DNA of 64,000 nt from Terrimicrobiaceae bacterium (lineage in GTDB: Bacteria; Verrucomicrobiota; Verrucomicrobiia; Chthoniobacterales; Terrimicrobiaceae), in the NCBI GenBank assembly GCA_044342325.1, contig JBIIPZ010000011.1:1-64000 (forward strand). The letters run 5' to 3'. This document shows, piece by piece, positions 4,698 to 24,535 of this stretch. Position 1 is the stretch's first letter. Each line of letters opens with the position of its first letter. The notes under the pieces are model-generated. The model did not search any database. It was not told the origin of the DNA and saw only the letters and a list, made by a program, of their open reading frames with translations. The position numbers were made by a program, and so were the translations under genes.

Positions 4698-4737
4698 GTT
4701 TAAAGAAACGGACATCTGTTTAAAAAAATGGACATTT
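4698..4737 (-). promoter_or_regulatory. Tandem 20-bp direct-repeat operator, copy 1 (putative AraC-family site)
   Basis: + strand GTTTAAAGAAACGGACATCT GTTTAAAAAAATGGACATTT, about 45 nt upstream of ATG 4653; near-identical copies at 10553 and 24496. Confidence 0.75.
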
Positions 4738-4820
4738 TTTGGAAAAACGGAAAAGCGGGGCTGTGTTATTCGAGGAGTTAGGACTCTGAAAACGCATCTG
4801 CGAGCGGCTGGGAGGTTCGA

Positions 4821-5035
4821 CAGAATGATGGATGGCAGAATTATCTTTTGGGGGGGTGAGTGGCGCGCTGTCGCGCGATTGCTGTGGCGGCGTCTCTGTG
4901 AGCGACGCGGGATGGTCGTCCGATTCGGCAGTCATAGACAGCCGCTACAGAGGCGTCATTCAAGGTCCTCTTCAATGATTCTGACATCCATGATTCTGCC
5001 CGCCCTACCCCCGGCGCTCATAGAGACGACGCTAC
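4821..5035. repeat. Composite REP-like inverted-repeat cluster
   Basis: CAGAATGATGGATGGCAGAATTAT (4821) pairs with ATGATTCTGACATCCATGATTCTG (4975). GTGGCGGCGTCTCTGTGAGCGACG (4884) pairs with CGGCAGTCATAGACAGCCGCTAC (4926) and CGGCGCTCATAGAGACGACGCTAC (5012). Confidence 0.65.
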
Positions 5036-5058
5036 CGTGCTGCGCGGCAGGACGCCTC

Positions 5059-6417
5059 TTAAAACTCCCCTTCGTGGCGTGATGGGGTGTTTGCGGACAA
5101 CTCCCAAGGCAACAATCTGCCGATAGCCCACAGGGCGTAGAGTGGAAGGTTGAGAATTTTGCCGTCCCTGCGGAGGTTCAACAGAGTGCTGCGCAGCAGT
5201 TGATCGGGACCGAATTTTTCATCGTAGGTTCGCAGGCTTTTGCTTTTGGAATTGATGCCGGCTTTGACCTCGAGCGGCAGGATGTCTCCAGGGGCAGACT
5301 GCCAGAGAAAGTCGACCTCGGCCGTGGCGGATTCATTTTTCCAGTAGTAAAGGCCGCCGCTTGCGATCGTGCGCAGTGTTTGAGCGGCATAATTTTCAAT
5401 GAAGGCACCCTTGAATTCCTGAAAGAGGTCATGACCGCGCACCAGAATGTCGGGCAAAATGTTGGCCATCGCTCCAAGGAGTCCGATATCCAAGGCATAT
5501 ACCTTGAACGCACTCCGGTCCGCATAGGCCGAGAGCGGCTGCCCCGGCTTAGTGACAAGGAAGCACCTCAATATGAGCCCGGCGTTTTCAAGCCAGAGAA
5601 TGGCATTTTCATAATCCCGGGCCCGTGCGGTTTTTTTGAGTGCGGTAAACTGGAATTTCCGGTTCTCGCGCGCCAACTGCGCAGGAATGGAATCCCATAC
5701 TTGCATGAGCTTAGGGATGTCGGTCGTCGGCGCATGCTTGGCAAAATCGAGCACATAGGCGTTCAGGATTTCTTTTTGAATCACCCGGACTTCGGAAAAG
5801 TCGCGAGATCTCGCGTAGCAAGCCACCGCTTCCGGCATTCCTCCCACAAAATAGTAGCGCTTCAACAAATCAACCAGATCCTCGTGGAAGGGCTGTGCAA
5901 AAGGCTCTGCATCCTTTTTTTCCTCCACGAGTTTCCGGTAGCGCGACTCGCCAACCGCATCCAAAAACTCGGGAAACGACATCGGCCTCAGGTCCAAAAA
6001 ATTCACTTTGCCCACTGGAAACGACATAGGTTGCGATAGTTTGACCCCAAGCAGGGAACCCGCAGCGGCGATGTGAAATTCGTTGACCTGCTCCTGAAAA
6101 TACTTCAGCGAGTTTAATGCCTCGTTGCAGGCTTGGATTTCATCAAAAATAATCAGGTCGCTTCCCGGCTTGATTGCTTCTTTGCGGTAAATGCCCAAGG
6201 CCTCGATCAGATCGGCCGGTTTCAGTCTGCCTTGGAAAAAATCTTTCAGCCCCGGGTCCTCCTCAAAATTGAAATACGCGACACCCTCGTATTCGTTCGC
6301 CCCAAACTCGCGGAGCAAATGGGTCTTACCCGCCTGCCTTGCCCCGCGTATTATCAAAGGTTTGCGACGCTCTGCGGTTTTCCATTCACACAATTCCCGA
6401 TAAAGATCGCGTTTCAT
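5059..6417 (-). CDS. AAA_14 ATPase with DUF4143 / C-terminal PD-(D/E)XK-like domain
   Basis: Walker A GARQAGKT, Walker B IIFDEIQ, YYFVGGMPE, C-terminal EVDF...PLEVKAG. Confidence 0.88.
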   Translation of the reverse strand: MKRDLYRELCEWKTAERRKPLIIRGARQAGKTHLLREFGANEYEGVAYFNFEEDPGLKDFFQGRLKPADLIEALGIYRKEAIKPGSDLIIFDEIQACNEALNSLKYFQEQVNEFHIAAAGSLLGVKLSQPMSFPVGKVNFLDLRPMSFPEFLDAVGESRYRKLVEEKKDAEPFAQPFHEDLVDLLKRYYFVGGMPEAVACYARSRDFSEVRVIQKEILNAYVLDFAKHAPTTDIPKLMQVWDSIPAQLARENRKFQFTALKKTARARDYENAILWLENAGLILRCFLVTKPGQPLSAYADRSAFKVYALDIGLLGAMANILPDILVRGHDLFQEFKGAFIENYAAQTLRTIASGGLYYWKNESATAEVDFLWQSAPGDILPLEVKAGINSKSKSLRTYDEKFGPDQLLRSTLLNLRRDGKILNLPLYALWAIGRLLPWELSANTPSRHEGEF

Positions 6418-6864: not shown

Positions 6865-7569
6865 TCACCGATACCACACCGCAGCATTGGTAACTGGCCC
6901 GGAAACCGATCCGTCAAAAAAAAGCCAGAGACGCTTTCCGCGAAGAGAGCCTTTTGCAGGAAGCAAGCTCATTGCAGCACTGCCACTGTTCCAAGATGCT
7001 TGATCTGCCATGGTGATAATCGCTGCGCGACGAGCCGAGTTCCACACTGTAGCCTCTGAAAGTGATTGAAGCCTCTTGGGGCGGACAGCAGCTGCCGCAG
7101 AGGCTTGCATTGTGGTGCCACCGGACAAATCCCCCCAAATTCTATAATCTGGGGCTGTAGATGGCATTTCACATCTGATGAACTGCGCAGCGTTGGATGT
7201 AGTCTGGGCTTTCGAGGACAATGTCGGATTTTGCAGAACCTTCACAAAACCTGCTTTCCCGTTTGCTGGAGCGCCAAGGTAGGGAGCAAGAAACTGACCA
7301 AGATGCGGCAAGTCATTTGAAGCAACGGGATTTCTCGCATATCCAAAAATCGCAACTGTCGAGGGACCTGGTAATTGACCATCATTCTCCCCCGCATAGA
7401 GCTGGATCGCCGCGCCGATCTGCTTTAGCGAACTCGTCGCCTTCGCTTGATTACCGCTCATGATTGCCGATGAGATTGCCGGAATCGCCAATGCGGCAAG
7501 AACGGCAATGATTGCTACAACCACCAACAATTCGACTAATGTGAAGGCTTGTTTATTGGTTTTAAACAT
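6865..7569 (-). CDS. Prepilin-type N-terminal cleavage/methylation domain protein (PVC-type pseudopilin)
   Basis: KQAFTLVELLVVVAIIAVLAALAIP, SSLKQIGAAIQLYAGENDGQLP, C-terminal LFFDGSV; start reassigned to ATG 7569 (7587 possible). Confidence 0.88.
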   Translation of the reverse strand: MFKTNKQAFTLVELLVVVAIIAVLAALAIPAISSAIMSGNQAKATSSLKQIGAAIQLYAGENDGQLPGPSTVAIFGYARNPVASNDLPHLGQFLAPYLGAPANGKAGFVKVLQNPTLSSKAQTTSNAAQFIRCEMPSTAPDYRIWGDLSGGTTMQASAAAAVRPKRLQSLSEATVWNSARRAAIITMADQASWNSGSAAMSLLPAKGSLRGKRLWLFFDGSVSGPVTNAAVWYR

Positions 7570-7591
7570 TATGCCGCTCCATTTCATATAA

Positions 7592-9625
7592 CTATTTTCC
7601 GCTCGAGAGGATGTCGGAGCAAATGTCTTGGCCGGTGAATCGGTATTTATTCTCACCGATGGCTACTGTTTTTCCATTACTGGATGTGAGCGGCATGGGG
7701 GCGGTGGTGGTGATGACCGCCTGGCTTTCGCCTGGGCCGACTCCGGCGATGAGGAGGCGGACATTGCCCTCCGCGTCGCGGAACTCGCAGGCTACGACCT
7801 CACCTTTCTCGACTTCCAATTTCACCTCGGGAGCGGGCTTGTCGGCGAGGAGGAATGGCTCCAATCCGCGAAGGACACCGCCTACGCGAGAAAGCTCGGC
7901 CCAGCGGCGAGCGAAGTCGGCTTCATTCTGCGGAGCGGGGGCGTCTTTGATGCGGTTGCGATTGGGAGCGTAGAAGACCTCTTCGGTCATGGCGAGCAGG
8001 TTACCCGCATAGAAGATGAAGCCCTTGGCGCCACGGGCGGCCATGTAGAGCGACATGCTCAGCATCTGGTCTTCGGTGGGGTCAAGGAAGCGCTTGGCAT
8101 CCTCGGCGTCCTTGGCTTCGAATGTGCCCATATTGTGGGCCTGTGGAACCACCCAAGTGGGCAGGCCAGTGAGGTCCACGGCATTCATTTGCTTGGCAAC
8201 AATCTTCATCTGCACATTATCGGCAAACTTCACGGGGTAATTGTCCACGCCGATGACATCCTGGCCACCGCCATAGAATGGCAGGTCGTCATTTTGATAA
8301 AAAACAGACCAGGTGGGATGGAAGGGGTCAAGGCGGTTGACAAGAGCGCGGCGTTTTTCCAACCGATCCTTCATGCTCACGGGCAACTCATCGCAGAGAT
8401 ACCAAGCGAGCAATGCGGGGTGGTCTTTAAAGGTCTCCACCACCTTTGTGATCACAGCCGTATCGCCTTGGGCACCCATCCAGTATGTTAATGCATTTCT
8501 GATGCCTTCGTGCGCCCATTGGGTTCCAAAGAGAACCTTGAGACCCTTTTCATTGCTGTAATCGAGGCACTCGCGGATCGACTCGATCGTCGGTTGTTGA
8601 GTTTTATCAAAACGACCGACCATCACATGGTAAGGCATGATGCAATTGAACGGGCTTGCGCCGATACGATCGAGATCGTCTTTGATAAAGTTGTCGATGT
8701 AGAGACCAACTGGCAGGTAGGGCTTGCCGTTTACGATAGCACGGCCCTGGGCGTCGATGAGACAGGCATTGGCAGGAACAGGGCGATCGGCAGGCACCAC
8801 AGTGAGCGGAACGGTTTTTTCCGAGAGGGTATGATTGTTTTTTGGATCAAGAAGCGTGAGCCTCACCTCGGCTTCACCAAGCGGAAGACCAGAAAGATCG
8901 GCCTCAGCTCGCAGGGCGCTCACAGGAGATGTAACCGTCTTGAGCGTATTGCCACCCGAGACGACTTCTGCGCGAAGGGTGAGTTCATCCGAGCGCTTCC
9001 GGAGAGCCGAGTCTTCACAATAGACATTGAAACGCACGAGACCACTCTCCGGAGTGATGGTAGAAATCGCGGGCGAGATCAGGTTAAGCTGAATCACTGG
9101 TTCGTCCAATTTGAGTTCGACATCCTCGAACCAAGCCTCGCCGATTTGCTCCTTGCGAATCATCAGCACAAAGCGGGCGGATGTCGCATTATCGGGAACC
9201 ACTGCGCTGCCTTCGACTTTTGTCCAATCCTGGGCCGAGATGAGACCCGGAGGGTAAGTGGCTTTGATAAATTTGCCGGTCTCGTCATAGAACTCCATAC
9301 CCAGCGTGGCACCCTTGGAGTCTCCTTCGGGACGGACATATCGCATCCAGGCGCTAAACTTGTATTTGGCACCGGGGACGACATTGATTTTTTGATAAGT
9401 GAAAGCCTTGTCCGCCTTGTCCGTGCGCTCGAAAAACAGGGCGCGGGTGCTGCTGCGCCCCCCACCCTGCTCGATCACATAGCCCTTGCCCAATTTCCAA
9501 CCCTCTTCACCCAGCTCAAAGTTGCCGTTTTTCAGCAAAGGAGCAGAGGTTATGTCTTGGGCACGGATTCCAGGCGAGGCGAGAAAGAAGGAACCAAGAA
9601 GGCAGGTGACTATGAATCGAGACAT
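7592..9625 (-). CDS. Secreted CBM4/9-like domain + putative TIM-barrel glycoside hydrolase
   Basis: Signal peptide; LLKNGNFELGEEGW...PGAKYKFSAWMR...GEAWFEDVEL (CBM-like); IVNGKPYLPVGLY; FKDHPALLAWYLCDELP; DVIGVDNYP. Confidence 0.75.
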   Translation of the reverse strand: MSRFIVTCLLGSFFLASPGIRAQDITSAPLLKNGNFELGEEGWKLGKGYVIEQGGGRSSTRALFFERTDKADKAFTYQKINVVPGAKYKFSAWMRYVRPEGDSKGATLGMEFYDETGKFIKATYPPGLISAQDWTKVEGSAVVPDNATSARFVLMIRKEQIGEAWFEDVELKLDEPVIQLNLISPAISTITPESGLVRFNVYCEDSALRKRSDELTLRAEVVSGGNTLKTVTSPVSALRAEADLSGLPLGEAEVRLTLLDPKNNHTLSEKTVPLTVVPADRPVPANACLIDAQGRAIVNGKPYLPVGLYIDNFIKDDLDRIGASPFNCIMPYHVMVGRFDKTQQPTIESIRECLDYSNEKGLKVLFGTQWAHEGIRNALTYWMGAQGDTAVITKVVETFKDHPALLAWYLCDELPVSMKDRLEKRRALVNRLDPFHPTWSVFYQNDDLPFYGGGQDVIGVDNYPVKFADNVQMKIVAKQMNAVDLTGLPTWVVPQAHNMGTFEAKDAEDAKRFLDPTEDQMLSMSLYMAARGAKGFIFYAGNLLAMTEEVFYAPNRNRIKDAPAPQNEADFARRWAELSRVGGVLRGLEPFLLADKPAPEVKLEVEKGEVVACEFRDAEGNVRLLIAGVGPGESQAVITTTAPMPLTSSNGKTVAIGENKYRFTGQDICSDILSSGK

Positions 9626-9677: not shown

Positions 9678-10457
9678 TCAATTCGCTGCCGGGGCCACCG
9701 TGGCAGAAATATTGTCAATCCATCCCGAGCCTTCCGAGTCTTGCTCGCCCGTGCGAACGAAGACCTCATCCCAAGTCGTGGGGTCGGTGGCAAAGAAGCC
9801 GGCGAGATTGCGGGCGGTTCCCTCTTTGCCAATGAAGAGCGGCTGGAACTCGGTGTCGCTGATTTTAGAATCCCCTTGGCTCAAATCTTTCGCTGACACG
9901 CCAACGAGTTCTTTTGTGGCAAGATTAATGTCCACTTTGATTCGATACCAGTTTGTGGCAGTGGCGAAGAAACCCGCATTTGGAGCAGTAAAAATCCAAT
10001 GCGTCGCGCCGTAGTCCTCCAAGCGGAGAAAGAACGCGCCTTTGTTGATTCCAACATGGGCCGCGCCTTTGGAGGCGGATGCGCCAAATCCCACAGCGGC
10101 GGTGCAGGAACTACCAGTATCGCGCTGGGTATCGAACTCGTAGGAGAAAATGCCAGATGCCGGAAGTTTAAAAGGGTCCCTCTTGAGCTCGGCGGCCGTT
10201 GCGTCTTTGGTGGCTAAGAGATTCTTCGCCACGGCAGGAGTGGTGTTGATGCCTTTGGGGAGCGTGGAAATAGAAGGAGAATTCGGAACTCCCGCGCGGG
10301 CCCAACCCTCCTGACCGATTAAATTGGCATCGGTATTGTAAGAGTTGAAGTCTTCGGAGTAGACCGGAGTGGACGCCATGACCTGCGAGGCAACAGCAAT
10401 TGTTGCCACTGCAGCAAGGGCACAAACGGGGAGTATATTGGGGCTGTATGTGATCAT
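9678..10457 (-). CDS. Secreted hypothetical protein (beta-sandwich/lectin-like)
   Basis: Start reassigned to ATG 10457: signal peptide MITYSPNILPVCALAAVATIAVASQVMA, then VYSEDFNSY...LIGQEGW and C-terminal GWIDNISAT. Confidence 0.7.
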   Translation of the reverse strand: MITYSPNILPVCALAAVATIAVASQVMASTPVYSEDFNSYNTDANLIGQEGWARAGVPNSPSISTLPKGINTTPAVAKNLLATKDATAAELKRDPFKLPASGIFSYEFDTQRDTGSSCTAAVGFGASASKGAAHVGINKGAFFLRLEDYGATHWIFTAPNAGFFATATNWYRIKVDINLATKELVGVSAKDLSQGDSKISDTEFQPLFIGKEGTARNLAGFFATDPTTWDEVFVRTGEQDSEGSGWIDNISATVAPAAN

Positions 10458-10552
10458 ATTGTATAGAGGTTTTTTTGATTTTGTTGAAAGCGGCGATGAG
10501 CGCCACAGTGAAAGAGATTCAATACCCGCGCCCGTGCAAACAAGGGTGAACT

Positions 10553-10592
10553 GTTTAAAAAAACGGACATCTGTTAAATAAAATGGACATTT
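10553..10592 (-). promoter_or_regulatory. Tandem 20-bp direct-repeat operator, copy 2
   Basis: + strand GTTTAAAAAAACGGACATCT GTTAAATAAAATGGACATTT upstream of ATG 10457. Confidence 0.75.
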
Positions 10593-10926: not shown

Positions 10927-10954
10927 TATATTGTTTACCTTGGGAAACAATATA
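10927..10954. promoter_or_regulatory. Palindromic operator-like site directly upstream of second AAA ATPase
   Basis: TATATTGTTT-accttggg-AAACAATATA, ending 3 nt before ATG 10958. Confidence 0.5.
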
Positions 10955-10957
10955 CTC

Positions 10958-12353: not shown

Positions 12354-12431
12354 CTACGAGGTCAGCTTTTTCAAATCTTGATACAACCACCAGAGGAAGA
12401 AGAGCGCGATGGCCGACCAGATGATGCTCAG
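12354..12431 (-). pseudogene. Possible C-terminal remnant of a deleted membrane protein
   Basis: Start-less frame LSIIWSAIALFFLWWLYQDLKKLTS-stop abutting the araD stop codon. Confidence 0.4.
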
Positions 12432-13129
12432 GATTTTTTCTGACCGTAGGTGGCGGTGGCGCCGTGCTTGCGTAGGAAATGTTTTTCCGAAAGGGCAAGT
12501 GCGGGCGGGGCGGCATCGGGGGCCAGCGTCAGGGCGTGGAATGCCATGTCGGCGACGATTTCGAGGGCGAGCGCGTTTTCAACGGCCTTTGCGGCCGAAG
12601 GTCCCCAAGCGAAAGGGCCGTGGTTGCGGACCAGCACGGCCGGGATGTCGTTTGGGTTGCTGTTTGCGAAGCGTTCGACAATCACCTTGCCGGTTTCCCA
12701 TTCATAGGCCGAAGCGATTTCCTCGGGTGTGAGGGCTCGGGTGAGCGGGACGGGTCCCCGGAAATAATCCGCATGCGTCGTGCCGAGCAAAGGAATCTCC
12801 CGCGCCGCCTGCGCGAAGGCCACAGCCTTGCGCGAGTGGGTGTGCACGACCGAGCGGATGTCGGAAAATGCCAAAAACAAACACCGGTGCGTGGGAGTGT
12901 CGGAGGAAGGGTTGAGTGTGCCTTCCACGACCTTGCCGTCAAAGTCAACGATCACCATGTCATCCGGCGTGAGAGCGGAGTAATCAACCCCGCTGGGTTT
13001 GATGGCCAGCACGCCGGTCTGCCTGTCGCAGACGCTCACATTGCCGAAGGTGAGGTCGACAAGGCCGCTTGTCGGCAGGCTTTTGTTGGCGGCGCAGCAT
13101 TCTTCGCGGATGTCTGAAAATCGTTGCAT
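12428..13129 (-). CDS. araD: L-ribulose-5-phosphate 4-epimerase (class II aldolase family)
   Basis: LVDLTFGNVS, IKPSGVDY, PSSDTPTH, VVHTHS, GTTHADYF, NHGPFAWG, KHFLRKHGATATYGQ. Confidence 0.9.
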   Translation of the reverse strand: MQRFSDIREECCAANKSLPTSGLVDLTFGNVSVCDRQTGVLAIKPSGVDYSALTPDDMVIVDFDGKVVEGTLNPSSDTPTHRCLFLAFSDIRSVVHTHSRKAVAFAQAAREIPLLGTTHADYFRGPVPLTRALTPEEIASAYEWETGKVIVERFANSNPNDIPAVLVRNHGPFAWGPSAAKAVENALALEIVADMAFHALTLAPDAAPPALALSEKHFLRKHGATATYGQKKS

Positions 13130-13140
13130 GGAGTTTGATT

Positions 13141-14184: not shown

Positions 14185-14188
14185 GGAT

Positions 14189-14500: not shown

Positions 14501-14515
14501 GGTGGTGTGTTGGGT

Positions 14516-15535: not shown

Positions 15536-15549
15536 GGTGCCCGTATCGA

Positions 15550-16440
15550 TTAAAGTCCCAAGTCCCACTCGGGATGGATGCTCACGGGATGTGTGGCGGT
15601 TTCCAAAGTGGCCGTGACGAGGGCGTCGGGATGCTCTTGCAACAGGGTCATCGGATACTCCGGCGTCGGTTCACTGAAGAGGGCCACGCGCAGCGCGGTT
15701 TGTTTCCAAGCCCCGGTGTCGCTGAAGAGACGCACTTTTTTTGCCGAGAGGCATTCCTTGAGGCCAAGGGTCACGCTCATCGGCGGCACAAACTGGTAGG
15801 CGCAGCCGAAGGTGCGCTGGGCGAGCGCGATGATAGTATCGAGGTTATTGTCCTGAACACGCACGCTGCAATTGCGAAGGTCGTCGAGCGAAAGCGAACT
15901 GAAGGGATGACGCCGCGCCTGGTTGTAGGCGATGTGGCCGTCCTGCCCCCAACCGCCGTAGGTGATGTCGATCGGCGCACGGGCGATCTCATCGGCGATT
16001 TGCTGAAAGTTCGTCGCATTCGGCCACCAGCGGTTTTCCTCGGGCGTGAGCAAGGCGGGCTGGATCGGCCCGTAGAACTCGCGCTCCATGAATCCGCGAA
16101 AACTGTAGGGATGATTGCGCGGCAACTCGCGGCCCTGCCAGTCGAGGCATTCGTCCATGTGGAACACCGTGACATTGCGCAGGCTGATCTGCTCGCGGTT
16201 CACGACTTCGGCAAAAGGCTTATACCAGCAGGCCGGACCACAGGGAATGATCGCGCGGGTCGGCAGGTTTTTTGCGTTGTTGCCCGCGATGAGGTCCGCA
16301 AGCTCGCGGGCCATGAGGGCACCCATCGCCGCCGAATCGGCAGCAATGCGGAAAGGCACTTTGCGGGCCGCATGTTTTTCAAGTTCGCTGGCTGGAATGC
16401 GGCACCAGCCGTGGAGTTGTTTGGCAGTGACGGTGTTCAT
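15550..16440 (-). CDS. NagB/glucosamine-6-phosphate isomerase-like protein
   Basis: IIPCGP, TVFHMDE, HPYSFRGFM, GGWGQDGHIAYN, SVTLGLKE, YPMTLLQEHPDA. Confidence 0.82.
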   Translation of the reverse strand: MNTVTAKQLHGWCRIPASELEKHAARKVPFRIAADSAAMGALMARELADLIAGNNAKNLPTRAIIPCGPACWYKPFAEVVNREQISLRNVTVFHMDECLDWQGRELPRNHPYSFRGFMEREFYGPIQPALLTPEENRWWPNATNFQQIADEIARAPIDITYGGWGQDGHIAYNQARRHPFSSLSLDDLRNCSVRVQDNNLDTIIALAQRTFGCAYQFVPPMSVTLGLKECLSAKKVRLFSDTGAWKQTALRVALFSEPTPEYPMTLLQEHPDALVTATLETATHPVSIHPEWDLGL

Positions 16441-16529
16441 TAATAACGAGGTTTTTTAGACAGAATTTATAGAATTAACGGGAACGGACGCGGCACCTGT
16501 GAAGAATCTTGCGATTATCATCCTTGACG
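16438..16529. repeat. About 90-bp direct repeat A (downstream side of SGNH gene)
   Basis: CATTAATAACGAGGTTTTTTAGACAGAATTTATAGAATTAACGGGAACGGACGCGG...TCATCCTTGACG; matches 17262-17351. Confidence 0.85.
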
Positions 16530-17264
16530 AAAATCGGGGCCTGAAATTCTTGCCGAGCGCCAGTCGATTTCCGAGAGCTTGGCAAACCAGCTCGCGGCCA
16601 GACGGCGGGTGCCCGCCTCGGTGAGGTGGACGCCATCCTCGACATGCGTGTCCGGCGTTTGACCGGCAGGAGTGTGATCGGCATACGCACAAGCGAAGCC
16701 CTCCGCTGCCCGGCGGGTAGCGGCTTCGCGGAGGAGCGCATTGTAGGCATTCACCCGATCCGTGATGTCATCCGGAACCAAAGTTCCCCAGGGCTTCAAA
16801 CCTGGCAGAATCGGCATGATGCCACCGACCAACAAGGCAGGCTTCGTCGCGGATTGAAGGATGAGGTCCATCAGTTCCTCGGTGAGTGTTGCACAAGCCG
16901 AAGGATCGCCCAGATACATGTCATTGGTGCCGATGAGCAACAAGACAAGGTCCGGACGATGACGCTCGAGCGTTTCCGGCAAAGGGCTGTTTTCGGAGTT
17001 CTCCGTTTTGGCTCCATCGCGGATCATTTGAATTCGGAATCCGGAGTGCCCTTCGTGAAACGGTTGCTGCATGCCCTCGGAATTGAGCTGCGAACCACCG
17101 ACAAACAAAAACTCCCAACCCGCATCGCGCAGATGCGCCTGCAGCGGCCTGCGATAACCACCGGGGAAGCCCCCTCCATTGGTGATCGAGTCGCCGATGC
17201 AGAGGATGCGCACGGGAGCTTGGTCGGGTGTGGCGGATGCGGACATGAGATGAGATGCAGACAT
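16518..17264 (-). CDS. SGNH/GDSL hydrolase (carbohydrate esterase CE3-like)
   Basis: ILCIGDSIT, FHEGHSG, LLIGTND, DGVHL. Confidence 0.9.
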   Translation of the reverse strand: MSASHLMSASATPDQAPVRILCIGDSITNGGGFPGGYRRPLQAHLRDAGWEFLFVGGSQLNSEGMQQPFHEGHSGFRIQMIRDGAKTENSENSPLPETLERHRPDLVLLLIGTNDMYLGDPSACATLTEELMDLILQSATKPALLVGGIMPILPGLKPWGTLVPDDITDRVNAYNALLREAATRRAAEGFACAYADHTPAGQTPDTHVEDGVHLTEAGTRRLAASWFAKLSEIDWRSARISGPDFRQG

Positions 17265-17351
17265 GAATAACGGGTTTTTGGACAGAATTTACAGGATTAA
17301 CGGCAACGGACGCGGGAACAGCAAGCGATCTCGCGCTTGTCATCCTTGCCG
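17262..17351. repeat. About 90-bp direct repeat B (upstream side of SGNH gene)
   Basis: CATGAATAACGGGTTTTTGGACAGAATTTACAGGATTAACGGCAACGGACGCGG...TCATCCTTGCCG. Confidence 0.85.
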
Positions 17352-17386
17352 CCGAGCAGTGAGTTAAAGTTTATGGAAATAGACTA

Positions 17387-18346
17387 TCAACCCTTCGGGT
17401 AATTCACGGGATTGAGTGGCGGGCGGCCTTGCAGGACTTCGGCGACATTGCGGGCGCAGGTTAGGCGCGCTTGCTTGCGGCTTTCGACCGTGCCGCCGCC
17501 GATGTGCGGACTGAAGACGACATTTTTTTGTGCAAGGAGACCGGGATGAATTTGCGGCTCGTTCTCGGCGACATCCATGCCGGCGCCGCCGAGATGGCCG
17601 CTGGCCAGGGCCGCAGCGAGCGCGTTTTCATCGATCACCGGACCGCGTGCCATGTTGAGCACGAACGCTCCGCGTTTCATAAGAGCGATGCTTTGCGCAT
17701 TGAGAAGGTGACGCGTTGCGGGCACCAAGGGGCAATTCAGGCTCACCACATCGGATTCGGCGAGCAAGGCCTCGAGCGTGCGATAGCGGGGATCATTTTG
17801 TCCGCTGGTGTTGTGGAAAATGACGCGCATGCCGAAAGCTTCGGCGCGCTTGGCCACTCCACGGCCGATTTGGCCGAAGCCAACGATGCCGATGGTTTTG
17901 CCGCCGAGAAGCATGCCATCCCACGGACCGGGTTGGAATCCATCCTTGGCCCATTGGCCTGAGCGCACATAGGCATCGGCTTCGGGCACACGGCGGGCGA
18001 CTGCGAGCAGCAGCGCGATGGTATGATCGGCTGCTGGCTCGCTGAAGGGATCGGGGCAGTTGCTGGCCCAAACCCCCGCTTCATCGAGTGCGGCGATGTC
18101 GAGGTTGTTGTAGCCGATGGCCACATTCGCAACGATGCGCAGCTTCGGTGCTGCAGCGAGGAGTTCCCGGTTCACCGCGAGTTCGTGCTGGTTGATGATG
18201 CCGACAAGCTCGGGCGCGAGGGCGAGAACCTCCTCGCGAGTGCACATCGGCCCACCGGAGGGGCCTTTGATGATTTCCGCCAACCCGAGCAACGGCTCCA
18301 GATGGTCGTCGGGGACATGGTTTGTGATGAGAACCTTTGGTTTCAT
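17387..18346 (-). CDS. D-isomer-specific 2-hydroxyacid dehydrogenase (GhrB/glyoxylate reductase-like)
   Basis: VAIGYNNLD, GIVGFGQIG, SDVVSLNCPL, NMARGPVIDE, SPHIGG. Confidence 0.92.
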   Translation of the reverse strand: MKPKVLITNHVPDDHLEPLLGLAEIIKGPSGGPMCTREEVLALAPELVGIINQHELAVNRELLAAAPKLRIVANVAIGYNNLDIAALDEAGVWASNCPDPFSEPAADHTIALLLAVARRVPEADAYVRSGQWAKDGFQPGPWDGMLLGGKTIGIVGFGQIGRGVAKRAEAFGMRVIFHNTSGQNDPRYRTLEALLAESDVVSLNCPLVPATRHLLNAQSIALMKRGAFVLNMARGPVIDENALAAALASGHLGGAGMDVAENEPQIHPGLLAQKNVVFSPHIGGGTVESRKQARLTCARNVAEVLQGRPPLNPVNYPKG

Positions 18347-18360
18347 GGCTGGATGAGAAA

Positions 18361-19221
18361 TCAGGCGCGTTGTTCGAGGATTTTTCGCTGCCCACGCACG
18401 GCAAGGATTGCAGCTTCATGATCCGAGATGATGTGGCTTCGTGCATCAAGACCCAGCGCGCGGAAGGCGATTCGATAAGGATTGGCGATCGCACCGGCGG
18501 CAGCCAAGACCAGAGGAACATCTTTCGGCAGCGCCGAGAGTTCGGAACCTATGAGCAGACCGCTGAGAAATGAGCTATTCGACTCCGGGCATTTTCCATG
18601 GAGCAGGGCGCGGGTGCGCACCTTGAAAAGCGAAGAGGTCAGCGAGCCATGAGTTGACTCATTGATGCCCTCTAGAAAAGCCGCCTCGTCCCAACCGGGA
18701 GCCATCGATTGACGAAGAATCCCATGCGCGCTGAGGAGGGCGTGGAGTTCGCCGCTCATGAATGTGCGAAAGGCGACCATAGCGCCGTTTTTCAAAACAC
18801 AGTGCTTGGAATGCGTGCCGGGAAGAATCACCACCGCATCCTCCCGCCCGACCTCCAGGCCAAGAAGTTCGGTCTCCTCGCCACGCATGACATCGTCCTC
18901 CGAACGGACGCCTGAGATTAAAAAAATGCCCGACTCGATCTCGTCCACTACGGCAGCGCTTCCATCCAAGAGGAACGGGAGACGCGCATACGGCAATTCC
19001 TTCCAACCGATGCTTGAGCCGGCCATGCCGGAAATCACGACCGGGCCAGTGGCTCCGAGGGAATCCATCGCCGCGCCAAGAGCCATACGAAATTCCTGCG
19101 GGGATTTCAGGGTGCCGGCTCCTTGAGGCGTGCGAACTTCCTTCACGACGGAATCGCCACGGACTATTCGGACACGCAGATTTGTCGTGCCCCAATCGCA
19201 ACTGGTGAAGTCAGGCGTCAT
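18361..19221 (-). CDS. dgoK: 2-dehydro-3-deoxygalactonokinase
   Basis: CDWGTTNLR, SGMAGSSIGW, DVMRGEETEL, LPGTHSKH, FRTFMSGEL, LSGLLIGSE. Confidence 0.9.
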   Translation of the reverse strand: MTPDFTSCDWGTTNLRVRIVRGDSVVKEVRTPQGAGTLKSPQEFRMALGAAMDSLGATGPVVISGMAGSSIGWKELPYARLPFLLDGSAAVVDEIESGIFLISGVRSEDDVMRGEETELLGLEVGREDAVVILPGTHSKHCVLKNGAMVAFRTFMSGELHALLSAHGILRQSMAPGWDEAAFLEGINESTHGSLTSSLFKVRTRALLHGKCPESNSSFLSGLLIGSELSALPKDVPLVLAAAGAIANPYRIAFRALGLDARSHIISDHEAAILAVRGQRKILEQRA

Positions 19222-19667
19222 ACAGCAACCTTCACCACGATTTTCGTGAAAGGCTGGCCTTCGTTGGCTGTGGGAGCATGGACATCAGTGGGGAAAAAGA
19301 CCGTGAATTGTCCCTGTCGAACATTCAGCCAACAGGCCGGGCGGTCCTTGTAAAACTCCACCTCCTTTTTTTCATCGTAGCCGAGTGGAGCGCGGCTCTC
19401 GGCGAGCGGCATCCAGCCCATGAGGTCCTCGCCTTCGACGATGTATTGAATGTCGATGTAGCGGCGATGCGTCTCCATGCGGGCATCCTCTCTCGGTTTG
19501 CCGAGACCTTTCATCACGACGGCAAAAAGAGACTCGCCCTGGATTTCAATTTTCCTTTCGGGCAATTCGCTGCGCGCCGCCAACTCGCGCAGATGCGAAA
19601 AGGCGACTGGGAAAAGCGGGTGCAGGCCCTCGTAGGCTGCGGAATGATTGAGTGAATCGAGAATCAT
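19218..19667 (-). CDS. YhcH/YjgK/YiaL (NanQ/EbgC-like) protein
   Basis: ETHRRYIDIQY, FTVFFPTDVHAP, KIVVKV. Confidence 0.92.
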   Translation of the reverse strand: MILDSLNHSAAYEGLHPLFPVAFSHLRELAARSELPERKIEIQGESLFAVVMKGLGKPREDARMETHRRYIDIQYIVEGEDLMGWMPLAESRAPLGYDEKKEVEFYKDRPACWLNVRQGQFTVFFPTDVHAPTANEGQPFTKIVVKVAV

Positions 19668-19689
19668 AGTTTTTGAGTGGTTGATTAGA

Positions 19690-20808
19690 TCACCATTCCG
19701 TCACGGATCCATCCTTACGAGTGAATTGTGGCGTCTCCCAGAGACCGTCGAAGACAAGTTTCGCAAGCTTCTCCTCGTCGATCTCGACTCCGAGTCCGGG
19801 TTTGTCGGGGATCAAGGCGTAGCCGTTCTCGACTTGGATCGGTTCCTTGAGAATCCCCTCGCCCAGCGTGAGGTGCTCCTGGCAGAGGAAATTCGGTGTG
19901 CAGGCATCGAGTTGCAGGCATGAGGCCAAAGCCACTGGTCCAAGCGGGCAATGCGGCGCGATCACGATGTCGTGAATCTCCGCCATCGCAGCAATTTTGC
20001 GCGCCTCGAAGATGCCGCCGACATGCGAGAGGTCAGGCTGAATGATCGACACCGATTGGCTGTGCAGCAGATCGCTGAAGTCCCAGCGCGTGAACAGACG
20101 CTCGCCGGCAGCAATCGGAATGGTCGTGCTCTCCTTGATTTCCCGCATCGCCCGAGGATTGATCGGTAGCACGGGTTCCTCGATGAACATCGGGCGAAAC
20201 GGCTCAAGCGCGCGGCAAAGCTGCTTTGCCACCGCCGGAGTGCAGCGTCCGTGAAAATCGAGCGCCATGTCGATGTCATTGCCCAGCGTCTTGCGAAGAT
20301 TCGCCACAGTCTCGACAACCTCGTCGATGAAACGCGGTGTCTCGATCGGCTCGCAGGCAGACACGGGCACGAATTTGTAGGCCGTAAAATCCCGGTCGCC
20401 CACAGCTTTGGCCACCTCGGAAACATAGTCACCAGTGCCCGCGATGTTGAGCCAGCCGTAGAGGCGAATCCTGTCGCGCACGCAACCACCAAGCATCTCG
20501 TGCACAGGCAATCCCGCCGCCTTGCCCTTGATGTCCCAAAGCGCCTGCTCGATGCCCGAAAGAGCCGATGTCATGATCGGCCCGCCGCGATAAAAACCAC
20601 CTCGATAGCATCGCTGCCAAAGGTGCTCGATGCGCGTCGGATCCTCGCCGATGAGGATACGGCCAAGTTCGTGCACCGCCGTCTCCACAGTGAGAGCTCG
20701 TCCCTCAAGCACCGGCTCACCCCAGCCGACTATGCCGGCATCGGTGTGAATTTTCAGAAACAACCAACGCGGCCGGATGTGGAAGGTCTCGAACTTGGTG
20801 ATTTTCAT
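19690..20808 (-). CDS. dgoD: Galactonate dehydratase-like enolase-superfamily enzyme
   Basis: PRWLFLKIHTDAGIVGWGEP, FYRGGPI, DFHGR, FIEEP, IAAGER, IIQPDLSH, APHCPLGP. Confidence 0.88.
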   Translation of the reverse strand: MKITKFETFHIRPRWLFLKIHTDAGIVGWGEPVLEGRALTVETAVHELGRILIGEDPTRIEHLWQRCYRGGFYRGGPIMTSALSGIEQALWDIKGKAAGLPVHEMLGGCVRDRIRLYGWLNIAGTGDYVSEVAKAVGDRDFTAYKFVPVSACEPIETPRFIDEVVETVANLRKTLGNDIDMALDFHGRCTPAVAKQLCRALEPFRPMFIEEPVLPINPRAMREIKESTTIPIAAGERLFTRWDFSDLLHSQSVSIIQPDLSHVGGIFEARKIAAMAEIHDIVIAPHCPLGPVALASCLQLDACTPNFLCQEHLTLGEGILKEPIQVENGYALIPDKPGLGVEIDEEKLAKLVFDGLWETPQFTRKDGSVTEW

Positions 20809-21827
20809 CGCACATTCAAGCGATCGAGATTGGCACGGAGGCGTTGCAAGGCTCCTACATATTTCTGTGGGATAAGGCCATGCTTGTCGGGGCCGACATC
20901 GAGGAGGAGGTTCGTGCCGCGGCTAATGCACAGCAGATACATTCCAAGGAGTTCTTCGTCGCTGCGGGGCTGATCTTCCTCGGTGAAGAACCACTCGCGG
21001 CCGATGGGATCGCAGACCTCGCCTGGCATGTAATACTTTTTGCCCTCGATCTCGCGCCATTTAACATGGCCGGTGTGGCTGTTGGGAAGGAAGCGTTCGA
21101 TAGCGATGATATCTGCCGGCCATGCGTCAAAGCCGACACAAGGCACCCCGTATTGGTTGATCACGGGATAGTTTGAGCCATCGCCGATGCCATTGTTGTT
21201 CATGACAACCGTTTCGGGCTGCCATGTGGTGATATTGCGGTAAAGCTCCTCGCGATAGCAGCGCGGCAGCATGCCGGGAATATCGATCCACACCTCGGCG
21301 ACTTTACCGTAACCGGTAAGCAGTTCCTCGAGCTGCGCGGTCTGAAAATCCTGATACGCGCGGGTGGTGAAGGCGTGCAAATTTCCGGGCTTCTTGTCTG
21401 CCGTCATGTCCGAATAAGTGCGGGAGCCGAAGCGGTTGTGATTGTCCCACGAGCAGTAATAGAAGCCGGGCAGCACGCCGCGTTTTTCGCAGGCATTCAC
21501 AAATGCCTCGACGACATCGGTTTTGTTGCTGCTGGTTCCGACATGGTAGTCATTGTGCTTGGTCGGCCAGAGGCAGTGACCGGCGACATGCTTGGTGGTG
21601 AGCACGGCATACTTCATTCCGGCGTCGCGCGCCACGGAGACCCACTGGTCCACATCGAGCTTGTCGGGCGCGTAGAGAGTGGAGGGATGGCTGCCATCGG
21701 GCAGTTCCGATCCAGTGTAGGTGCTCATGCCGTAGTGGATGAACATGCCGTATTTGAGGGCTTCCCATTCCTGGAGTTGCTCGAGGCTCAGGCGCTGGGC
21801 TCCGCGTTCGTTGGTCGTGGTTCCCAT
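20805..21827 (-). CDS. Alpha-L-fucosidase family GH29, no signal peptide
   Basis: KYGMFIHYG, DAGMKYAVLTTKHVAGHCLWPT, LLTGYGKVAEVWID, NLLLDVGPDKHG; start reassigned to ATG 21827. Confidence 0.88.
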   Translation of the reverse strand: MGTTTNERGAQRLSLEQLQEWEALKYGMFIHYGMSTYTGSELPDGSHPSTLYAPDKLDVDQWVSVARDAGMKYAVLTTKHVAGHCLWPTKHNDYHVGTSSNKTDVVEAFVNACEKRGVLPGFYYCSWDNHNRFGSRTYSDMTADKKPGNLHAFTTRAYQDFQTAQLEELLTGYGKVAEVWIDIPGMLPRCYREELYRNITTWQPETVVMNNNGIGDGSNYPVINQYGVPCVGFDAWPADIIAIERFLPNSHTGHVKWREIEGKKYYMPGEVCDPIGREWFFTEEDQPRSDEELLGMYLLCISRGTNLLLDVGPDKHGLIPQKYVGALQRLRANLDRLNVR

Positions 21828-21834
21828 GAGATCC

Positions 21835-22560
21835 CTATTGCTCCCGGCTCTCCAATGCCTTTGGGTATTCCTGACAGAGGTAGAATTCTCGAGGCTCATC
21901 CTCGACGATCTGAGGAAAACGAATCGCCCATTCCTCGAAGAAGACATTGTCATTCCAATCGTCGCAGACGCTCGAGATTTCGCTGCTCAACGAGTAGCGA
22001 CCGCCTTCGAATTCCCATCCGGTTCCCTCCTCCGCCCAGAACTGGTGAATTGTTCCCGGCGGGATGGTCAGGCTCTCGCCGGGCGTGAGGCGCACGATCT
22101 CGCGGGGTCCGAGGATTCGCATGCAGGCGTTGACTTGGATTGCAAATTTCTCATCCGACCATCCTCCTTCGGGCGTGGCCTTGGTGAGTTGAACAAGAAT
22201 GTTACCGCCATGGCGGCAGATGATGTCCTCGCGCTTCGAGCGGTGGAAGTGTGCCGGAGCGCGCTGGTTCTCGGGATCGATGAGAAGCTTCTCGGCGTAA
22301 GCCTTAGGATAGCGAGGATCGTTGGAGCGACCGTTGCGAAGCGTAAAAAGAACGCGGCCGATGTTTTCAAAATCCCCGCTGCCAAAGTCGGTGACATCCC
22401 AACCGAGCATGCAGTCGCGAACCTCATTGTGCTCTGCGCCTGCCTTCTTCCATTGATCAAGCGACCAATGGCCATAAGTCGGTAGGGCGAAGTGGAAGTG
22501 TTCCGCAACCTTGATGGCTGTGCGGAGGCTTTTGTTAATGGTGGAGCGTTTGAGTGGCAT
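21835..22560 (-). CDS. D-lyxose/D-mannose family sugar isomerase (cupin)
   Basis: LGWDVTDFG, LFTLRNG, YAEKLL, PAHFHRSKREDII, EISSVCDDWNDNVF. Confidence 0.88.
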   Translation of the reverse strand: MPLKRSTINKSLRTAIKVAEHFHFALPTYGHWSLDQWKKAGAEHNEVRDCMLGWDVTDFGSGDFENIGRVLFTLRNGRSNDPRYPKAYAEKLLIDPENQRAPAHFHRSKREDIICRHGGNILVQLTKATPEGGWSDEKFAIQVNACMRILGPREIVRLTPGESLTIPPGTIHQFWAEEGTGWEFEGGRYSLSSEISSVCDDWNDNVFFEEWAIRFPQIVEDEPREFYLCQEYPKALESREQ

Positions 22561-22608
22561 GGATTGGTGTTAGTTTTATTTTTTAAGGGAGAGGGGTTAT
22601 GGCGTCTG

Positions 22609-24450
22609 TTAAACTACTGCGGAGTTTTTACTCGCACACGCGTTCACGAGCAGGGCGCGGGTGTGAATCGCGACTTCGCTCACGCATGCCGACACAGCGG
22701 CTTCCGAAGCGCCATTGATGTCACGCAGGGCCGGATTGTAGCGCCCCCAACCGAACTGGCGCTCGTCGCCGCCGTCGCAGAGCACTCCATTGATCACAAA
22801 CAGAATCAACTTCGGTCCACCGTCGATGATCACGCTGACATGATTCGTCTCGACGGGGTCGAGAGAATCGGAGTCACTCGCCCATGAGCTAACAGTGCGT
22901 CCATCCGAGAGCATGACTTCGATCCGGCCGTTTGATATGGCCCGCAAGAAAATCCCCGAGCCCTCTGCATTGCGGCTGTCGAAAAGGACTTCCCCTTCAT
23001 CAGGAAGTCCGTCGATGGAGAACTCCAAGGTGACACCGGCACGGGGGTCTTTTGTTCCGCAAGTGAAAGACTGAATATCACGCTCAAGTAGGTTGGGCAC
23101 CGGATTGAGAGGCATGTGCCAGGCGTCGTTCGCATGGCGCGAGGCATGCTGCGCCGGCTCAGATTTGCGGGCGGCAACACCATCGAACTGACTGAAAATC
23201 TGTTCCAGGAAATCCGGATCCAGAGCATGGATGCGGGCATTCATTTTATCCGTCTCGGTAAACCACACCTTTCCGTCCTGTTCGAGAAGGTCCGGATAAC
23301 TCATGCGAACCATGTGATCGTCGTCGTAGAGCAGGATTTCTGGTTGCGTCCATTCGAGCTCCTTGCCATTTGGCCCGTCGATTTCGCGGCCAGCGCTGAT
23401 CCAAACCGGATTGCGGTCGTCGTAGGGCGAGCGACCATTTACTGGCGAGAGGCCATTCGGGAGGGAGGAATGACCACCCAAAGCACGAATGAAGGCCCCA
23501 CCGTGATTGTGAAACCAGTAAAGGTAGCGACCACCCGAAAGCTTCCAGACAAAGTTGGCGGCGCGGGGATTTTTCATGCGGCGACCGCCGGGAGTGTAGG
23601 TCTTGTATTGTGGCGGCTCCCATGTGCGCCCGCCATCGCGGCTGTGCGTGTGGACCGGCCAACCATCCACGCTGCGGTAAACAGAATAAAGCGAACCATC
23701 GCTCAACTCGACCACACTGTGTTCCTCGGCAATTCGCCCACCTCCCGGCGGCGTGGTCAATCCGTGATCGCCATCCGGCAGCGTCTCGAAGCGGATTTTT
23801 TCGGGATCGGATTCTGTAAGGATGTTCGACGAGCAAATAAATGCCCCCTCGCTTTGAGCGAAGAAGCCGGCCCCCATCGCACCGACCTTGTGCAGTGGGA
23901 TGACAACTTCGCCATTCGCTCGAACACAGGGACGGCCGACATTCCAAAAAAACCGGACTTTGCCACCGTAAACATTGTTGCGGTCGCAAGCGAACTCGCG
24001 CACGGGAATCGTATGGCGCTTGGCCGACCAAGTCAGGCCGCCATCATCCGAGTATCGGAACACATAGTCGCCGAGCGAATCCACTCGCTGGAAGGCATCG
24101 CCATCCTCGGTCTGCACCTCGCGCACATTGTCCGTGTTGAAATTGTAGAAACAATAAACCCGCCCGCCCGGCGTCACGAGTGCCACGGCGAAGGAGTTCT
24201 CAGGCGACCTGGCCGACTCCAACTTCACCGGCGCACTCCAGGTTTCCCCCTGATCCGACGAGCGCATGGCAAAAACGCCCTGCGAGGAATCCCCCTCATG
24301 CCCATCCGCGCTTGTCACCACGCACAACCAAGATCCATCTTTGAGGATAACAACATAAGGCTGGTCCGCATAACCAGGCTGGAGTGGCAATCGGACTCCC
24401 TGCGCAGCATGACGGCTATCGATATTTTTGAGACGTAAGGAAACTTTCAC
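22609..24450 (-). CDS. Sialidase-like BNR/Asp-box beta-propeller with C-terminal LamG-like domain
   Basis: Asp-boxes SSDQGETW, SDDGGLTW, SRDGGRTW; RMSYPD; C-terminal NHVSVIIDGGPKLILFVING. Confidence 0.8.
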   Translation of the reverse strand: MKVSLRLKNIDSRHAAQGVRLPLQPGYADQPYVVILKDGSWLCVVTSADGHEGDSSQGVFAMRSSDQGETWSAPVKLESARSPENSFAVALVTPGGRVYCFYNFNTDNVREVQTEDGDAFQRVDSLGDYVFRYSDDGGLTWSAKRHTIPVREFACDRNNVYGGKVRFFWNVGRPCVRANGEVVIPLHKVGAMGAGFFAQSEGAFICSSNILTESDPEKIRFETLPDGDHGLTTPPGGGRIAEEHSVVELSDGSLYSVYRSVDGWPVHTHSRDGGRTWEPPQYKTYTPGGRRMKNPRAANFVWKLSGGRYLYWFHNHGGAFIRALGGHSSLPNGLSPVNGRSPYDDRNPVWISAGREIDGPNGKELEWTQPEILLYDDDHMVRMSYPDLLEQDGKVWFTETDKMNARIHALDPDFLEQIFSQFDGVAARKSEPAQHASRHANDAWHMPLNPVPNLLERDIQSFTCGTKDPRAGVTLEFSIDGLPDEGEVLFDSRNAEGSGIFLRAISNGRIEVMLSDGRTVSSWASDSDSLDPVETNHVSVIIDGGPKLILFVINGVLCDGGDERQFGWGRYNPALRDINGASEAAVSACVSEVAIHTRALLVNACASKNSAVV

Positions 24451-24495
24451 AGGGCCTATTTTCTTAGGCCCAATTCCTCAAACAAAGCCCAACCC

Positions 24496-24535
24496 GTTTA
24501 AGAAAATGGACATCTGTTTAAGAAAATGGACATTT
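24496..24535 (-). promoter_or_regulatory. Tandem 20-bp direct-repeat operator, copy 3
   Basis: + strand GTTTAAGAAAATGGACATCT GTTTAAGAAAATGGACATTT, about 46 nt upstream of GTG 24450. Confidence 0.78.

Follow-up and report, generated by a model that had tools for sequence, protein, structure and literature searches.

A tandem 20-bp repeat upstream of a giant surface protein gene, a pilin/CBM-GH operon and a sugar catabolic operon: a candidate AraC glycan-capture regulon in Terrimicrobiaceae

Local AraC regulons, and SusCD-free loci in Verrucomicrobiota, are already known. AraC-type sugar regulators that control local regulons through 21-bp direct repeats have been described (PMC3870299); there, the RhaR groups of Bacillales, Bacteroides and Enterococcus resemble the locus studied here in having an AraC gene inside a sugar catabolic locus and, ahead of one or more operons, a tandem direct-repeat site. 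The present locus differs from these RhaR-type regulons in its repeat period, which is 20 bp rather than 21 bp, in its AraC, which belongs to another subfamily (the best curated models score far under their cut-offs), and in its targets, which include PEP-CTERM-like, pilin and secreted proteins.

Absence of SusCD has been reported for Verrucomicrobiota generally (PMC8857213), and the available text of that source poses polysaccharide uptake without SusCD as a question and describes PUL-like loci with clustered glycoside hydrolases, esterase, monosaccharide enzymes and a regulator, as found here. Like a Bacteroidota PUL, the present locus has co-located CAZymes, a transporter and a regulator, with the susC/susD pair absent; in line with the preliminary description, which called the system SusCD-free, SusD has no match in this 86%-complete genome. 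The freshwater-MAG CUT loci are TonB-dependent as far as the available text of PMC5615132 goes, whereas no TonB-dependent receptor is found in the locus here and two lie on other contigs. Moreover, a shared cis-element is defined here, while AraC and pili go unmentioned for the PMC8857213 and PMC5615132 loci in the available portions of both sources.

The Akkermansia MUL2 type IV-like pilus locus (PMC13174399), from the same phylum, is alike by its proposed role, a pilin-like gene serving glycan attachment. However, that paper describes MUL2 as a four-gene locus that is conserved, though less so in Chthoniobacterales, whereas the pilin here is of the N-methylation-motif type and sits inside a putatively inducible accessory locus. 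In the PEP-CTERM/exosortase PrsK-PrsR-PrsT system, too, a conserved activator site precedes a PEP-CTERM-like gene, but in the available text of PMC1569441 that site is sigma-54-type and confined to Proteobacteria, unlike the candidate site here, an AraC-type direct repeat before a sigma-70-like promoter that is common to catabolic genes. The Verru_Chthon cassette A-D (TIGR02600, 02599, 02596) is led by the repeat core with full promoter geometry in G495 and follows an operator-led CBM-GH gene in G365, both genomes of other families, whereas the locus here has one stand-alone pilin. Among titles, abstract openings and main texts, no published cis-regulatory link of an AraC operator to PEP-CTERM or pilin genes came to light; a similar regulon could still be contained in RegPrecise-type tables or fucoidan proteomics.

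The tandem repeat and its predicted promoters

Within the 64,000-nt stretch of DNA analysed (hereafter the window), the 40-bp element described in preliminary form at 4698, 10553 and 24496 in one orientation is recovered without mismatch at all three positions, the pattern as given lying on the + strand each time, and no match with up to three mismatches arises in 100 shuffles. Copy 1 (4698..4737, minus strand) comprises two 20-bp half-sites with the TGTCC core on the transcribed strand, followed in phase by a degenerate third half-site reaching approximately 4754; copy 2 (10553..10592, minus strand) and copy 3 (24496..24535, minus strand) match the pattern exactly. A PWM built from the six half-sites finds just these three tandem pairs in the whole genome (2.93 Mb, 78 contigs), with half-site scores of 31-34 bits and a runner-up at 21 bits. 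As originally described, each copy lies 5' of the gene that opens a minus-strand unit (start codons ATG 4653, ATG 10457 and GTG 24450), and the element is not a dispersed repeat. Sequence identity between the copies stops sharply at the element on the gene side. Copies 2 and 3 do share additional sequence, yet this extends over 28-29 bp, not the 35 bp first given, and holds no in-phase third half-site. Taken by itself, the short core shows no genome-wide enrichment here (14 matches at spacer 15 versus 11-44 at other spacers). An RNA hairpin was rejected as a reading of the element, which has no stable fold (z -0.6 to +0.6); REP, mobile repeat, iteron and attC-like readings were likewise rejected on the absence of a stable fold and the occurrence of only three copies, all at promoters.

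A sigma-70-like promoter is predicted between each copy and its unit, all on the minus strand. Specifically, promoter 1 (4661..4689) has -35 CTGGAT (4689-4684) and -10 GAAAAT (4666-4661), promoter 2 (10515..10543) has -35 TTGTTT (10543-10538) and -10 GAATCT (10520-10515), and promoter 3 (24458..24485) has -35 TTGTTT (24485-24480) and -10 GAAAAT (24463-24458). Promoters 1 and 2 are absent from a standard promoter scan because they fall below its threshold. With the offset picked by eye and the -10 weights taken from general background, a sigma-70-like -10 (nAnnnT) stands at +44/45 behind the element in 14 of 16 sites, a score reached by none of 2,000 shuffles. The predicted +1 coincides with ATG 4653 in unit 1 and with GTG 24450 in unit 3, suggesting that both units are leaderless, and relatives have ATG where unit 3 has GTG; unit 2 has a leader of approximately 50 nt between the predicted start of promoter 2 and ATG 10457. 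The core-to-start-codon distance is 57 and 58 nt here, and falls at 56-58 nt in 5 of 14 core matches, versus 3 of 43 at 52-62 nt.

Genes of the three units

Unit 1 opens with a signal-peptide protein carrying 11 PATR/TIGR02601 repeats (1..4653, minus strand), whose gene is cut by the contig end. Contig C26 overlaps the end of this gene by 127 nt and supplies a VPET-transmembrane-basic tail, giving a giant protein of approximately 1,590 aa in total; the tail is PEP-CTERM-like with PET in place of PEP, a pattern judged by eye. This C-terminus has no beta-barrel, which rules out a classical (type V) autotransporter. On C26, an MFS transporter gene lies downstream of the PATR gene, and an exosortase-family gene is present (Exosortase_EpsH, 141 bits).

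For unit 2, the preliminary description spoke of a pilin/GH operon; both genes are present, although neither comes first. The gene directly behind copy 2 encodes a 259-aa secreted protein (9678..10457, minus strand) of no Pfam or NCBIfam family, for which a PDB sequence search returned nothing useful and which is 27% identical along its full length to a PEP-CTERM protein of the related locus G341. It is followed by a secreted CBM4/9 plus GH-like protein (7592..9625, minus strand) of putative activity, with weak DUF4434, GH158 and GH42-like domain matches and weak CBM and GH158 matches in the PDB, and then by a pilin-like protein assigned by its N-methylation motif (6865..7569, minus strand). 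This pilin stands alone and scores 33 bits with TIGR02596, under the 70-bit cut-off; its orthologue in G047 is 58% identical and led by its own copy of the element.

Unit 3 begins with a BNR/sialidase-like propeller plus LamG protein without a signal peptide (22609..24450, minus strand), for which a PDB sequence search gave only weak sialidase matches. GH33 sialidases are marked by Asp boxes, an arginine triad with the RIP motif, and catalytic Glu and Tyr residues. In the BNR protein, Asp boxes are present, a Glu and an Arg align to those of sialidases, an invariant Arg and Tyr lie further on, and the RIP position reads DQP. By domain matches, the genes at 15550..22560 (minus strand) encode a D-lyxose isomerase family protein, GH29, a galactonate dehydratase that exceeds its curated cut-off, a YhcH/NanQ-like protein, DgoK, a 2-hydroxyacid dehydrogenase, a GDSL esterase and a NagB-like protein, and those at 12428..15568 (minus strand) a PfkB kinase, a small ORF, an amidohydrolase and an AraD-type epimerase. 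The PfkB gene carries a nonsense codon near 14891-14893, whereas its G046 counterpart is intact (339 aa), and a search of this genome did not recover the HpcH aldolase that relatives have; therefore, the pathway may be partly decayed here.

The AraC regulator and conservation of the repeat

Adjoining copy 3, as had been noted, is an AraC-family regulator with a cupin and a double HTH (24711..25655, minus strand; HTH_18 73 bits against a cut-off of 33.6, weak Cupin_2), whose cupin part has invariant His/Glu residues. It is the sole member of its subfamily in this genome, scoring 352 bits versus at most 77 for the other AraCs with a profile that includes the protein itself. The subfamily occurs in 6 of 301 genomes of the order. 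The gene upstream of this AraC varies (fucI, xylose genes or a phosphatase), with the BNR unit constantly downstream. In G365, the AraC is 45% identical and retains the recognition helix FR[H/Q]LTR.

Within the genus, 16 copies of the element occur in 6 of 40 other genomes, leading PATR, 259-aa, BNR, 1140-aa GH42-like or pilin genes in the loci examined, and despite shuffled gene order they stay before the leading gene of the unit. The motif and the AraC occur together in five genomes, with two having only the motif and two only the AraC; in G061 and G024, which have the AraC and no copy, contigs end just behind the AraC gene. The motif and the MFS gene occur together in seven genomes, with none having only the motif and two only the MFS, and in most relatives the MFS gene is located away from the locus. 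Because the motif tracks this distant gene as well as it tracks the AraC, co-occurrence within the genus is confounded by descent, and MFS co-occurrence was rejected as support, the gene being a clade marker. Of the 8 loci examined in close relatives, 7 do not keep the MFS gene adjacent, and in G047 another gene lies upstream; the family nevertheless recurs in distant loci (36% and 41%).

Beyond the genus, G365 has the same enzymes and two variant sites in which TGTCC is retained at the 20-bp period with different spacers. In loci across the order Chthoniobacterales, spacers have diverged while the TGTC[C/A/T] pair is kept, mostly next to AraCs of the subfamily described above. Across 17 loci (296.5 kb, 9 genomes), TGTC[CAT]-N15-TGTC[CAT], a pattern written after the G365 sites and one G341 site had been seen, gives 14 matches versus 0-6 (mean 2.7) for 16 other spacings. 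Combining the core with the -10 yields 15 distinct sites in five distant genomes, eight of them in the AraC-BNR loci used for derivation and seven elsewhere (three of the seven inspected), versus two in the reversed control. In keeping with the linkage, G654 and G649 have the BNR gene but neither AraC nor core within the surrounding 30-36 kb, and their whole genomes give no match to core plus -10. Against it, the locus of G525 has the subfamily AraC and no site with promoter geometry. Among members of other classes, G736 and G730, in which a 27%-identical AraC and the BNR gene are linked, lack the core in approximately 40 kb each, and G786 shows one core.

The regulatory reading and its alternatives

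The element is very likely an activator operator, because exact copies stand at unit starts, the 20-bp core is shared across families, the distance to the -10 is fixed and an AraC gene is linked; it probably belongs to the adjacent AraC. We consider it likely that the half-site pair before the predicted weak sigma-70 promoters of the three units is the operator of this AraC, which would activate all three. The 20-bp period of the half-sites is close to two turns of the helix, as in AraC/XylS direct-repeat regulons. An AraC dimer on the two half-sites (about -82 to -43) would recruit polymerase to promoters in which the -10 is missing its first T, and binding of a sugar or sugar acid effector would switch on the three units. 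The exports of units 1 and 2 (the PEP-CTERM-like PATR protein, small secreted protein, CBM-GH and pilin) may hold and cut extracellular glycan at the cell surface, and the fragments may enter via the MFS transporter of the family recurring in these loci. The cytoplasmic unit 3 enzymes (BNR sialidase-like, GH29 and esterase) would then complete the breakdown of the fragments and supply a keto-deoxy acid route of the galactonate type. The substrate is probably a glycan containing residues of the galactose and ulosonic-acid types. The operator-promoter block is portable, copied before different genes during locus reshuffling. Position, cross-family footprinting, promoter geometry and subfamily linkage give good support to the candidate operator and local AraC regulon of the preliminary description, whereas its adhesin and glycan-capture roles for the PATR protein stay putative.

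It is improbable that a true operator of the three promoters is bound by another regulator, the adjacent AraC serving, for example, a fucose operon. The genome has 22 AraC-type ORFs, a factor could be missing from the assembly, the 85%-complete genome of G048 carries three copies but gives no AraC match at E 1e-20, and at least four relatives have the AraC immediately behind fucP-aldolase-fucI; here, however, fucI sits on a different contig, and the genes ahead of the AraC in G061 are xylose genes. The RhaS-like AraC and LacI of relatives' clusters find best matches here of only 39% and 27%, and the subfamily AraC lies beside the BNR family in all six order genomes that have it. The G587 locus shows a core-like site beside a non-subfamily AraC, and TGTCC may therefore be a wider AraC preference. 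Far less probable still is a non-regulatory repeat, the trace of a duplicated promoter block or of a recombination or gene-conversion site that shuffles modules. Upstream flanks in relatives are mosaic, the same flank preceding different genes, the pilin promoter of G047 and the PATR promoter are homologous, and within the clade even the spacer is nearly identical from copy to copy. Yet duplication accounts for the spread of the copies and not for retention of the core: other genera and families keep only the two cores, the 20-bp spacing and the -10 distance, and within this genome the sharp gene-side boundary and the lack of dispersal or folding also argue against it.

A third reading keeps operator and AraC as proposed and takes the PATR protein and pilin as general surface proteins behind a strong inducible promoter, which we regard as possible, if somewhat on the unlikely side. 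In line with it, six other PATR ORFs and 16 other pilin-motif ORFs of this genome have no operator, the PATR body behind this one promoter varies widely from relative to relative (in G047, overall identity is 34%), and domain profile searches found no sugar-binding domain in the PATR protein. On the other hand, loci of this kind in several families repeatedly contain PATR/PEP-CTERM genes and pilin cassettes, which are core-led in G341, G587 and G495; dextran-binding pili-like fibres are described in planctomycetes in the available text of PMC5394234, and in Akkermansiaceae a role in glycan attachment has been proposed for a type IV-like pilus (PMC13174399).

If the adjacent AraC is the activator, one regulator, one 40-mer and three promoters would join a PATR protein, a pilin and a sugar-acid pathway, and the operator would tie surface proteins that lack an assigned function to glycan feeding. 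Verrucomicrobiota genomes hold many PATR/PEP-CTERM proteins and pilin cassettes without assigned function, and promoters offer a route to match such surface paralogues with substrates. More tentatively, and in our judgement rather doubtfully, the Chthoniobacterales substitute for SusCD could be a per-glycan PEP-CTERM/PATR protein plus a pilin or Verru_Chthon cassette, deployed via a portable leaderless AraC operator-promoter block; pilin cassettes would then be glycan-capture or import devices, and operators could show which substrate each paralogue serves. The core enzyme of the locus is indicated to be a member of a large, uncharacterised sialidase-like family, the BNR protein family, with 3,680 matches among 8,000 candidates scored.

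The tandem element and its promoter geometry

The 40-bp element, composed of two 20-bp half-sites, is a real feature of the window: exact matches occur at 4698-4737, 10553-10592 and 24496-24535, the three positions reported in the preliminary description, and none of 100 shuffled windows contains a match. The near-identical ATGTCCRTTTYHTTWAACAG occurs twice per copy on the transcribed strand, and folding of the element is no better than that of shuffles. The flank common to copies 2 and 3 measures 28-29 bp rather than the roughly 35 bp originally described. The genome scan proposed at that stage, using a matrix from the six half-sites, recovers only these three tandem copies in the 2.93-Mb genome (86% complete), their half-sites scoring 31-34 bits versus 21 for the next site.

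The promoter set comprises 16 sites: three from this genome, two from close relatives and 11 of 14 distant matches, the three inside reading frames being excluded. Specifically, 14 of the 16 have a -10-like nAnnnT at +44/45 relative to the proximal core, and seven have TTG at +22/23. At the -10-like offset the mean sigma-70 score, with E. coli weights, is 3.5, and none of the other 53 offsets exceeds 0.8; 2,000 shuffles never reach the score at this offset, which was first spotted by eye. With this fixed offset the half-sites would cover about -82 to -43 and abut the -35 on its upstream side, and units 1 and 3 would each have their start codon at the predicted +1. Additionally, in a crude genome-wide count of unit-leading ORFs, TAnnnT is mildly enriched 12-15 nt ahead of start codons and Shine-Dalgarno sequences form no peak, a pattern suggesting that transcripts without leaders may be widespread in the lineage; Shine-Dalgarno sequences are listed as scarce in some Verrucomicrobia (PMC10783764).

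Genes led by the three copies

Each copy leads a minus-strand unit. Unit 1 opens with a signal-peptide protein of 11 PATR repeats, truncated at the contig end. Contig C26 shares 127 bases with the start of the window and, read alone, carries this frame on to VPET, then a hydrophobic segment and a cluster of basic residues; the protein is thus about 1,590 aa long, PEP-CTERM-like and not an autotransporter. On C26 an MFS transporter gene comes next after the PATR gene; a second partial copy of it, 98% identical, lies on another contig (G000:C77:29841-31028). C26 also carries an exosortase-family gene adjoining a bacterial sugar transferase (L078:7104-8711 and 5595-7103); the exosortase is likely the enzyme that sorts this genome's VPET/VPEP-tailed PATR proteins. 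The genome holds seven PATR ORFs and 17 pilin-motif ORFs, only one of each in an operator-led unit.

Unit 2 encodes a 259-aa secreted protein matching no family, a secreted CBM4/9 plus GH-like protein and an N-methylation pilin. Unit 3 encodes a BNR/LamG protein, a lyxose-isomerase family protein, GH29, galactonate dehydratase (499 bits versus a cut-off of 311), YhcH and DgoK, together with 2-hydroxyacid dehydrogenase, GDSL, NagB-like, PfkB, amidohydrolase and AraD-type epimerase proteins; none of five unit 3 proteins checked has a signal peptide. The PfkB gene contains a nonsense codon near 14891-14893, either real decay or an assembly variant, and its counterpart in genome G046 is intact (339 aa, 95% identical). 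The BNR family keeps the Glu and Arg aligned to sialidases and lacks the RIP motif; one 889-aa homologue, P0167, carries an N-methylation motif and is apparently a pilin-BNR fusion. Two AAA_14 plus DUF4143 ATPase genes (5059-6417 and 10931-12241) stand between the three units; in several relatives the first of them is flanked by AraC and the BNR unit, indicating that these genes move within the locus. No SusD match was found in the 86%-complete genome, in keeping with the SusCD-free system first envisaged; other contigs encode two TonB receptors together with seven ATPases of secretion or pilus type.

The stretch at 25840-26430, upstream of the AraC gene (24711-25655), has been duplicated in tandem over about 280 bp, of which 132 nt are 95% identical; it includes palindromic repeats, and each copy has one isolated ATGTCC. 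A single half-site-like TTTAAATGAACATCTG at about 25890-25910 on the AraC strand, present also in metagenome locus L076, is a possible autoregulatory site.

Conservation in close and distant relatives

Among 41 genus genomes, the element occurs in seven including this one (19 copies in all, against zero for the reversed control), and AraC at 86% identity or more in seven; five have both, two the motif only and two AraC only. AraC is 86-93% identical on six contigs, from MAGs labelled Terrimicrobiaceae (four), Verrucomicrobiia (one) and Spartobacteria (one); in G061 and G024 the contigs end directly behind it. Gene order differs among the fetched loci, yet the element invariably stands before a gene that leads a unit, namely PATR, 259-aa, BNR and a 1,140-aa GH42-like gene absent from this genome, and in G047 a pilin orthologue (58%). 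G047 has four copies, with a 43% AraC paralogue between two of them. The MFS gene, which has a different location in most of these genomes, follows the motif's distribution as closely as AraC does; the AraC-motif co-occurrence is therefore not independent evidence, and the nine genomes are probably a single clade. Because element flanks are mosaic between copies, the block may have spread by duplication or recombination. In G047 (L037:15010-15340) and G061 (L055:769-1098), a variant of the 20-bp tandem, its cores reading GACAT, sits between the AraC paralogue and its divergent BNR paralogue and is oriented towards the AraC.

Beyond the genus, all BNR-family loci detected in 301 order genomes were fetched (nine genomes with a match), and 17 loci (296,515 bases) from eight of these plus a paralogous G046 locus entered a spacing test. 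TGTC[CAT]-N15-TGTC[CAT], a pattern defined once the sites of G365 and one of those in G341 had been seen, gives 14 matches versus 0-6 at each of 16 other spacings; ATG or GTG follows the core by 56-58 nt in 5/14, versus 3/43 within 52-62 nt for other spacings. G365 belongs to another family and shares the enzyme set; its AraC is 45% identical and retains the helix FR[H/Q]LTR, and its two sites conserve nothing beyond TGTCC-N-TTT and the 20-bp period. What the cores lead varies: BNR genes in G051, G495, G587 and G365, PATR/PEP-CTERM genes in G341 and G587, and a Verru_Chthon cassette in G495 and, there without the promoter geometry, in G525. In G654 and G649, BNR is present, neither AraC nor core was found nearby, and the core-plus--10 match is absent genome-wide. 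A subfamily profile, built including these AraC proteins and scored on seven candidates per genome, matches in 6/301 order genomes, with AraC beside BNR in all six. Two observations speak against the AraC-core link. In other classes, a 27% AraC member occurs in 3/400 genomes, two without a core in about 40 kb and one with one, giving no overall enrichment; and in G587 a core-like site adjoins a different AraC.

Other sugar loci with core-plus-promoter sites are L135:4723 in G051 and L136:4628 in G587; the neighbouring regulator is a LacI at one and a different AraC at the other, and these sites may be distal targets or reflect a shared AraC preference.

A candidate glycan-capture regulon

Building on the directly observed repeat, its position, linkage and gene families, we consider the element very probably an operator and the adjoining AraC probably its binder, the three units forming a probable local regulon; the odds that the PATR protein and pilin serve in capture are about even. 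On sensing a sugar, AraC bound to the half-sites would activate three weak promoters, exported proteins of units 1-2 would hold and cut glycan outside the cell, the MFS transporter would import the fragments, and cytoplasmic enzymes would complete their breakdown via a galactonate-type route.

AraC sugar regulons with direct repeats (PMC3870299) and PUL-like loci without SusCD in the same phylum (PMC8857213; PMC5615132) are known, and so are PEP-CTERM proteins of Akkermansia that depend on carbon source (PMC4960237). Glycan attachment by pili is described or proposed (PMC13174399; PMC5394234; PMC11131199). For PEP-CTERM genes, a common upstream site of sigma-54 type is described in Proteobacteria only (PMC1569441). 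A full-text literature search limited to open-access main texts returned no paper that treats this operator or has an AraC controlling PATR/PEP-CTERM or Verru_Chthon genes.

Members of the MFS family turn up again in distant loci, with matches of 36% and 41%. The BNR Glu and Arg without RIP, YhcH and an HpcH aldolase of relatives weakly hint at an ulosonic acid.
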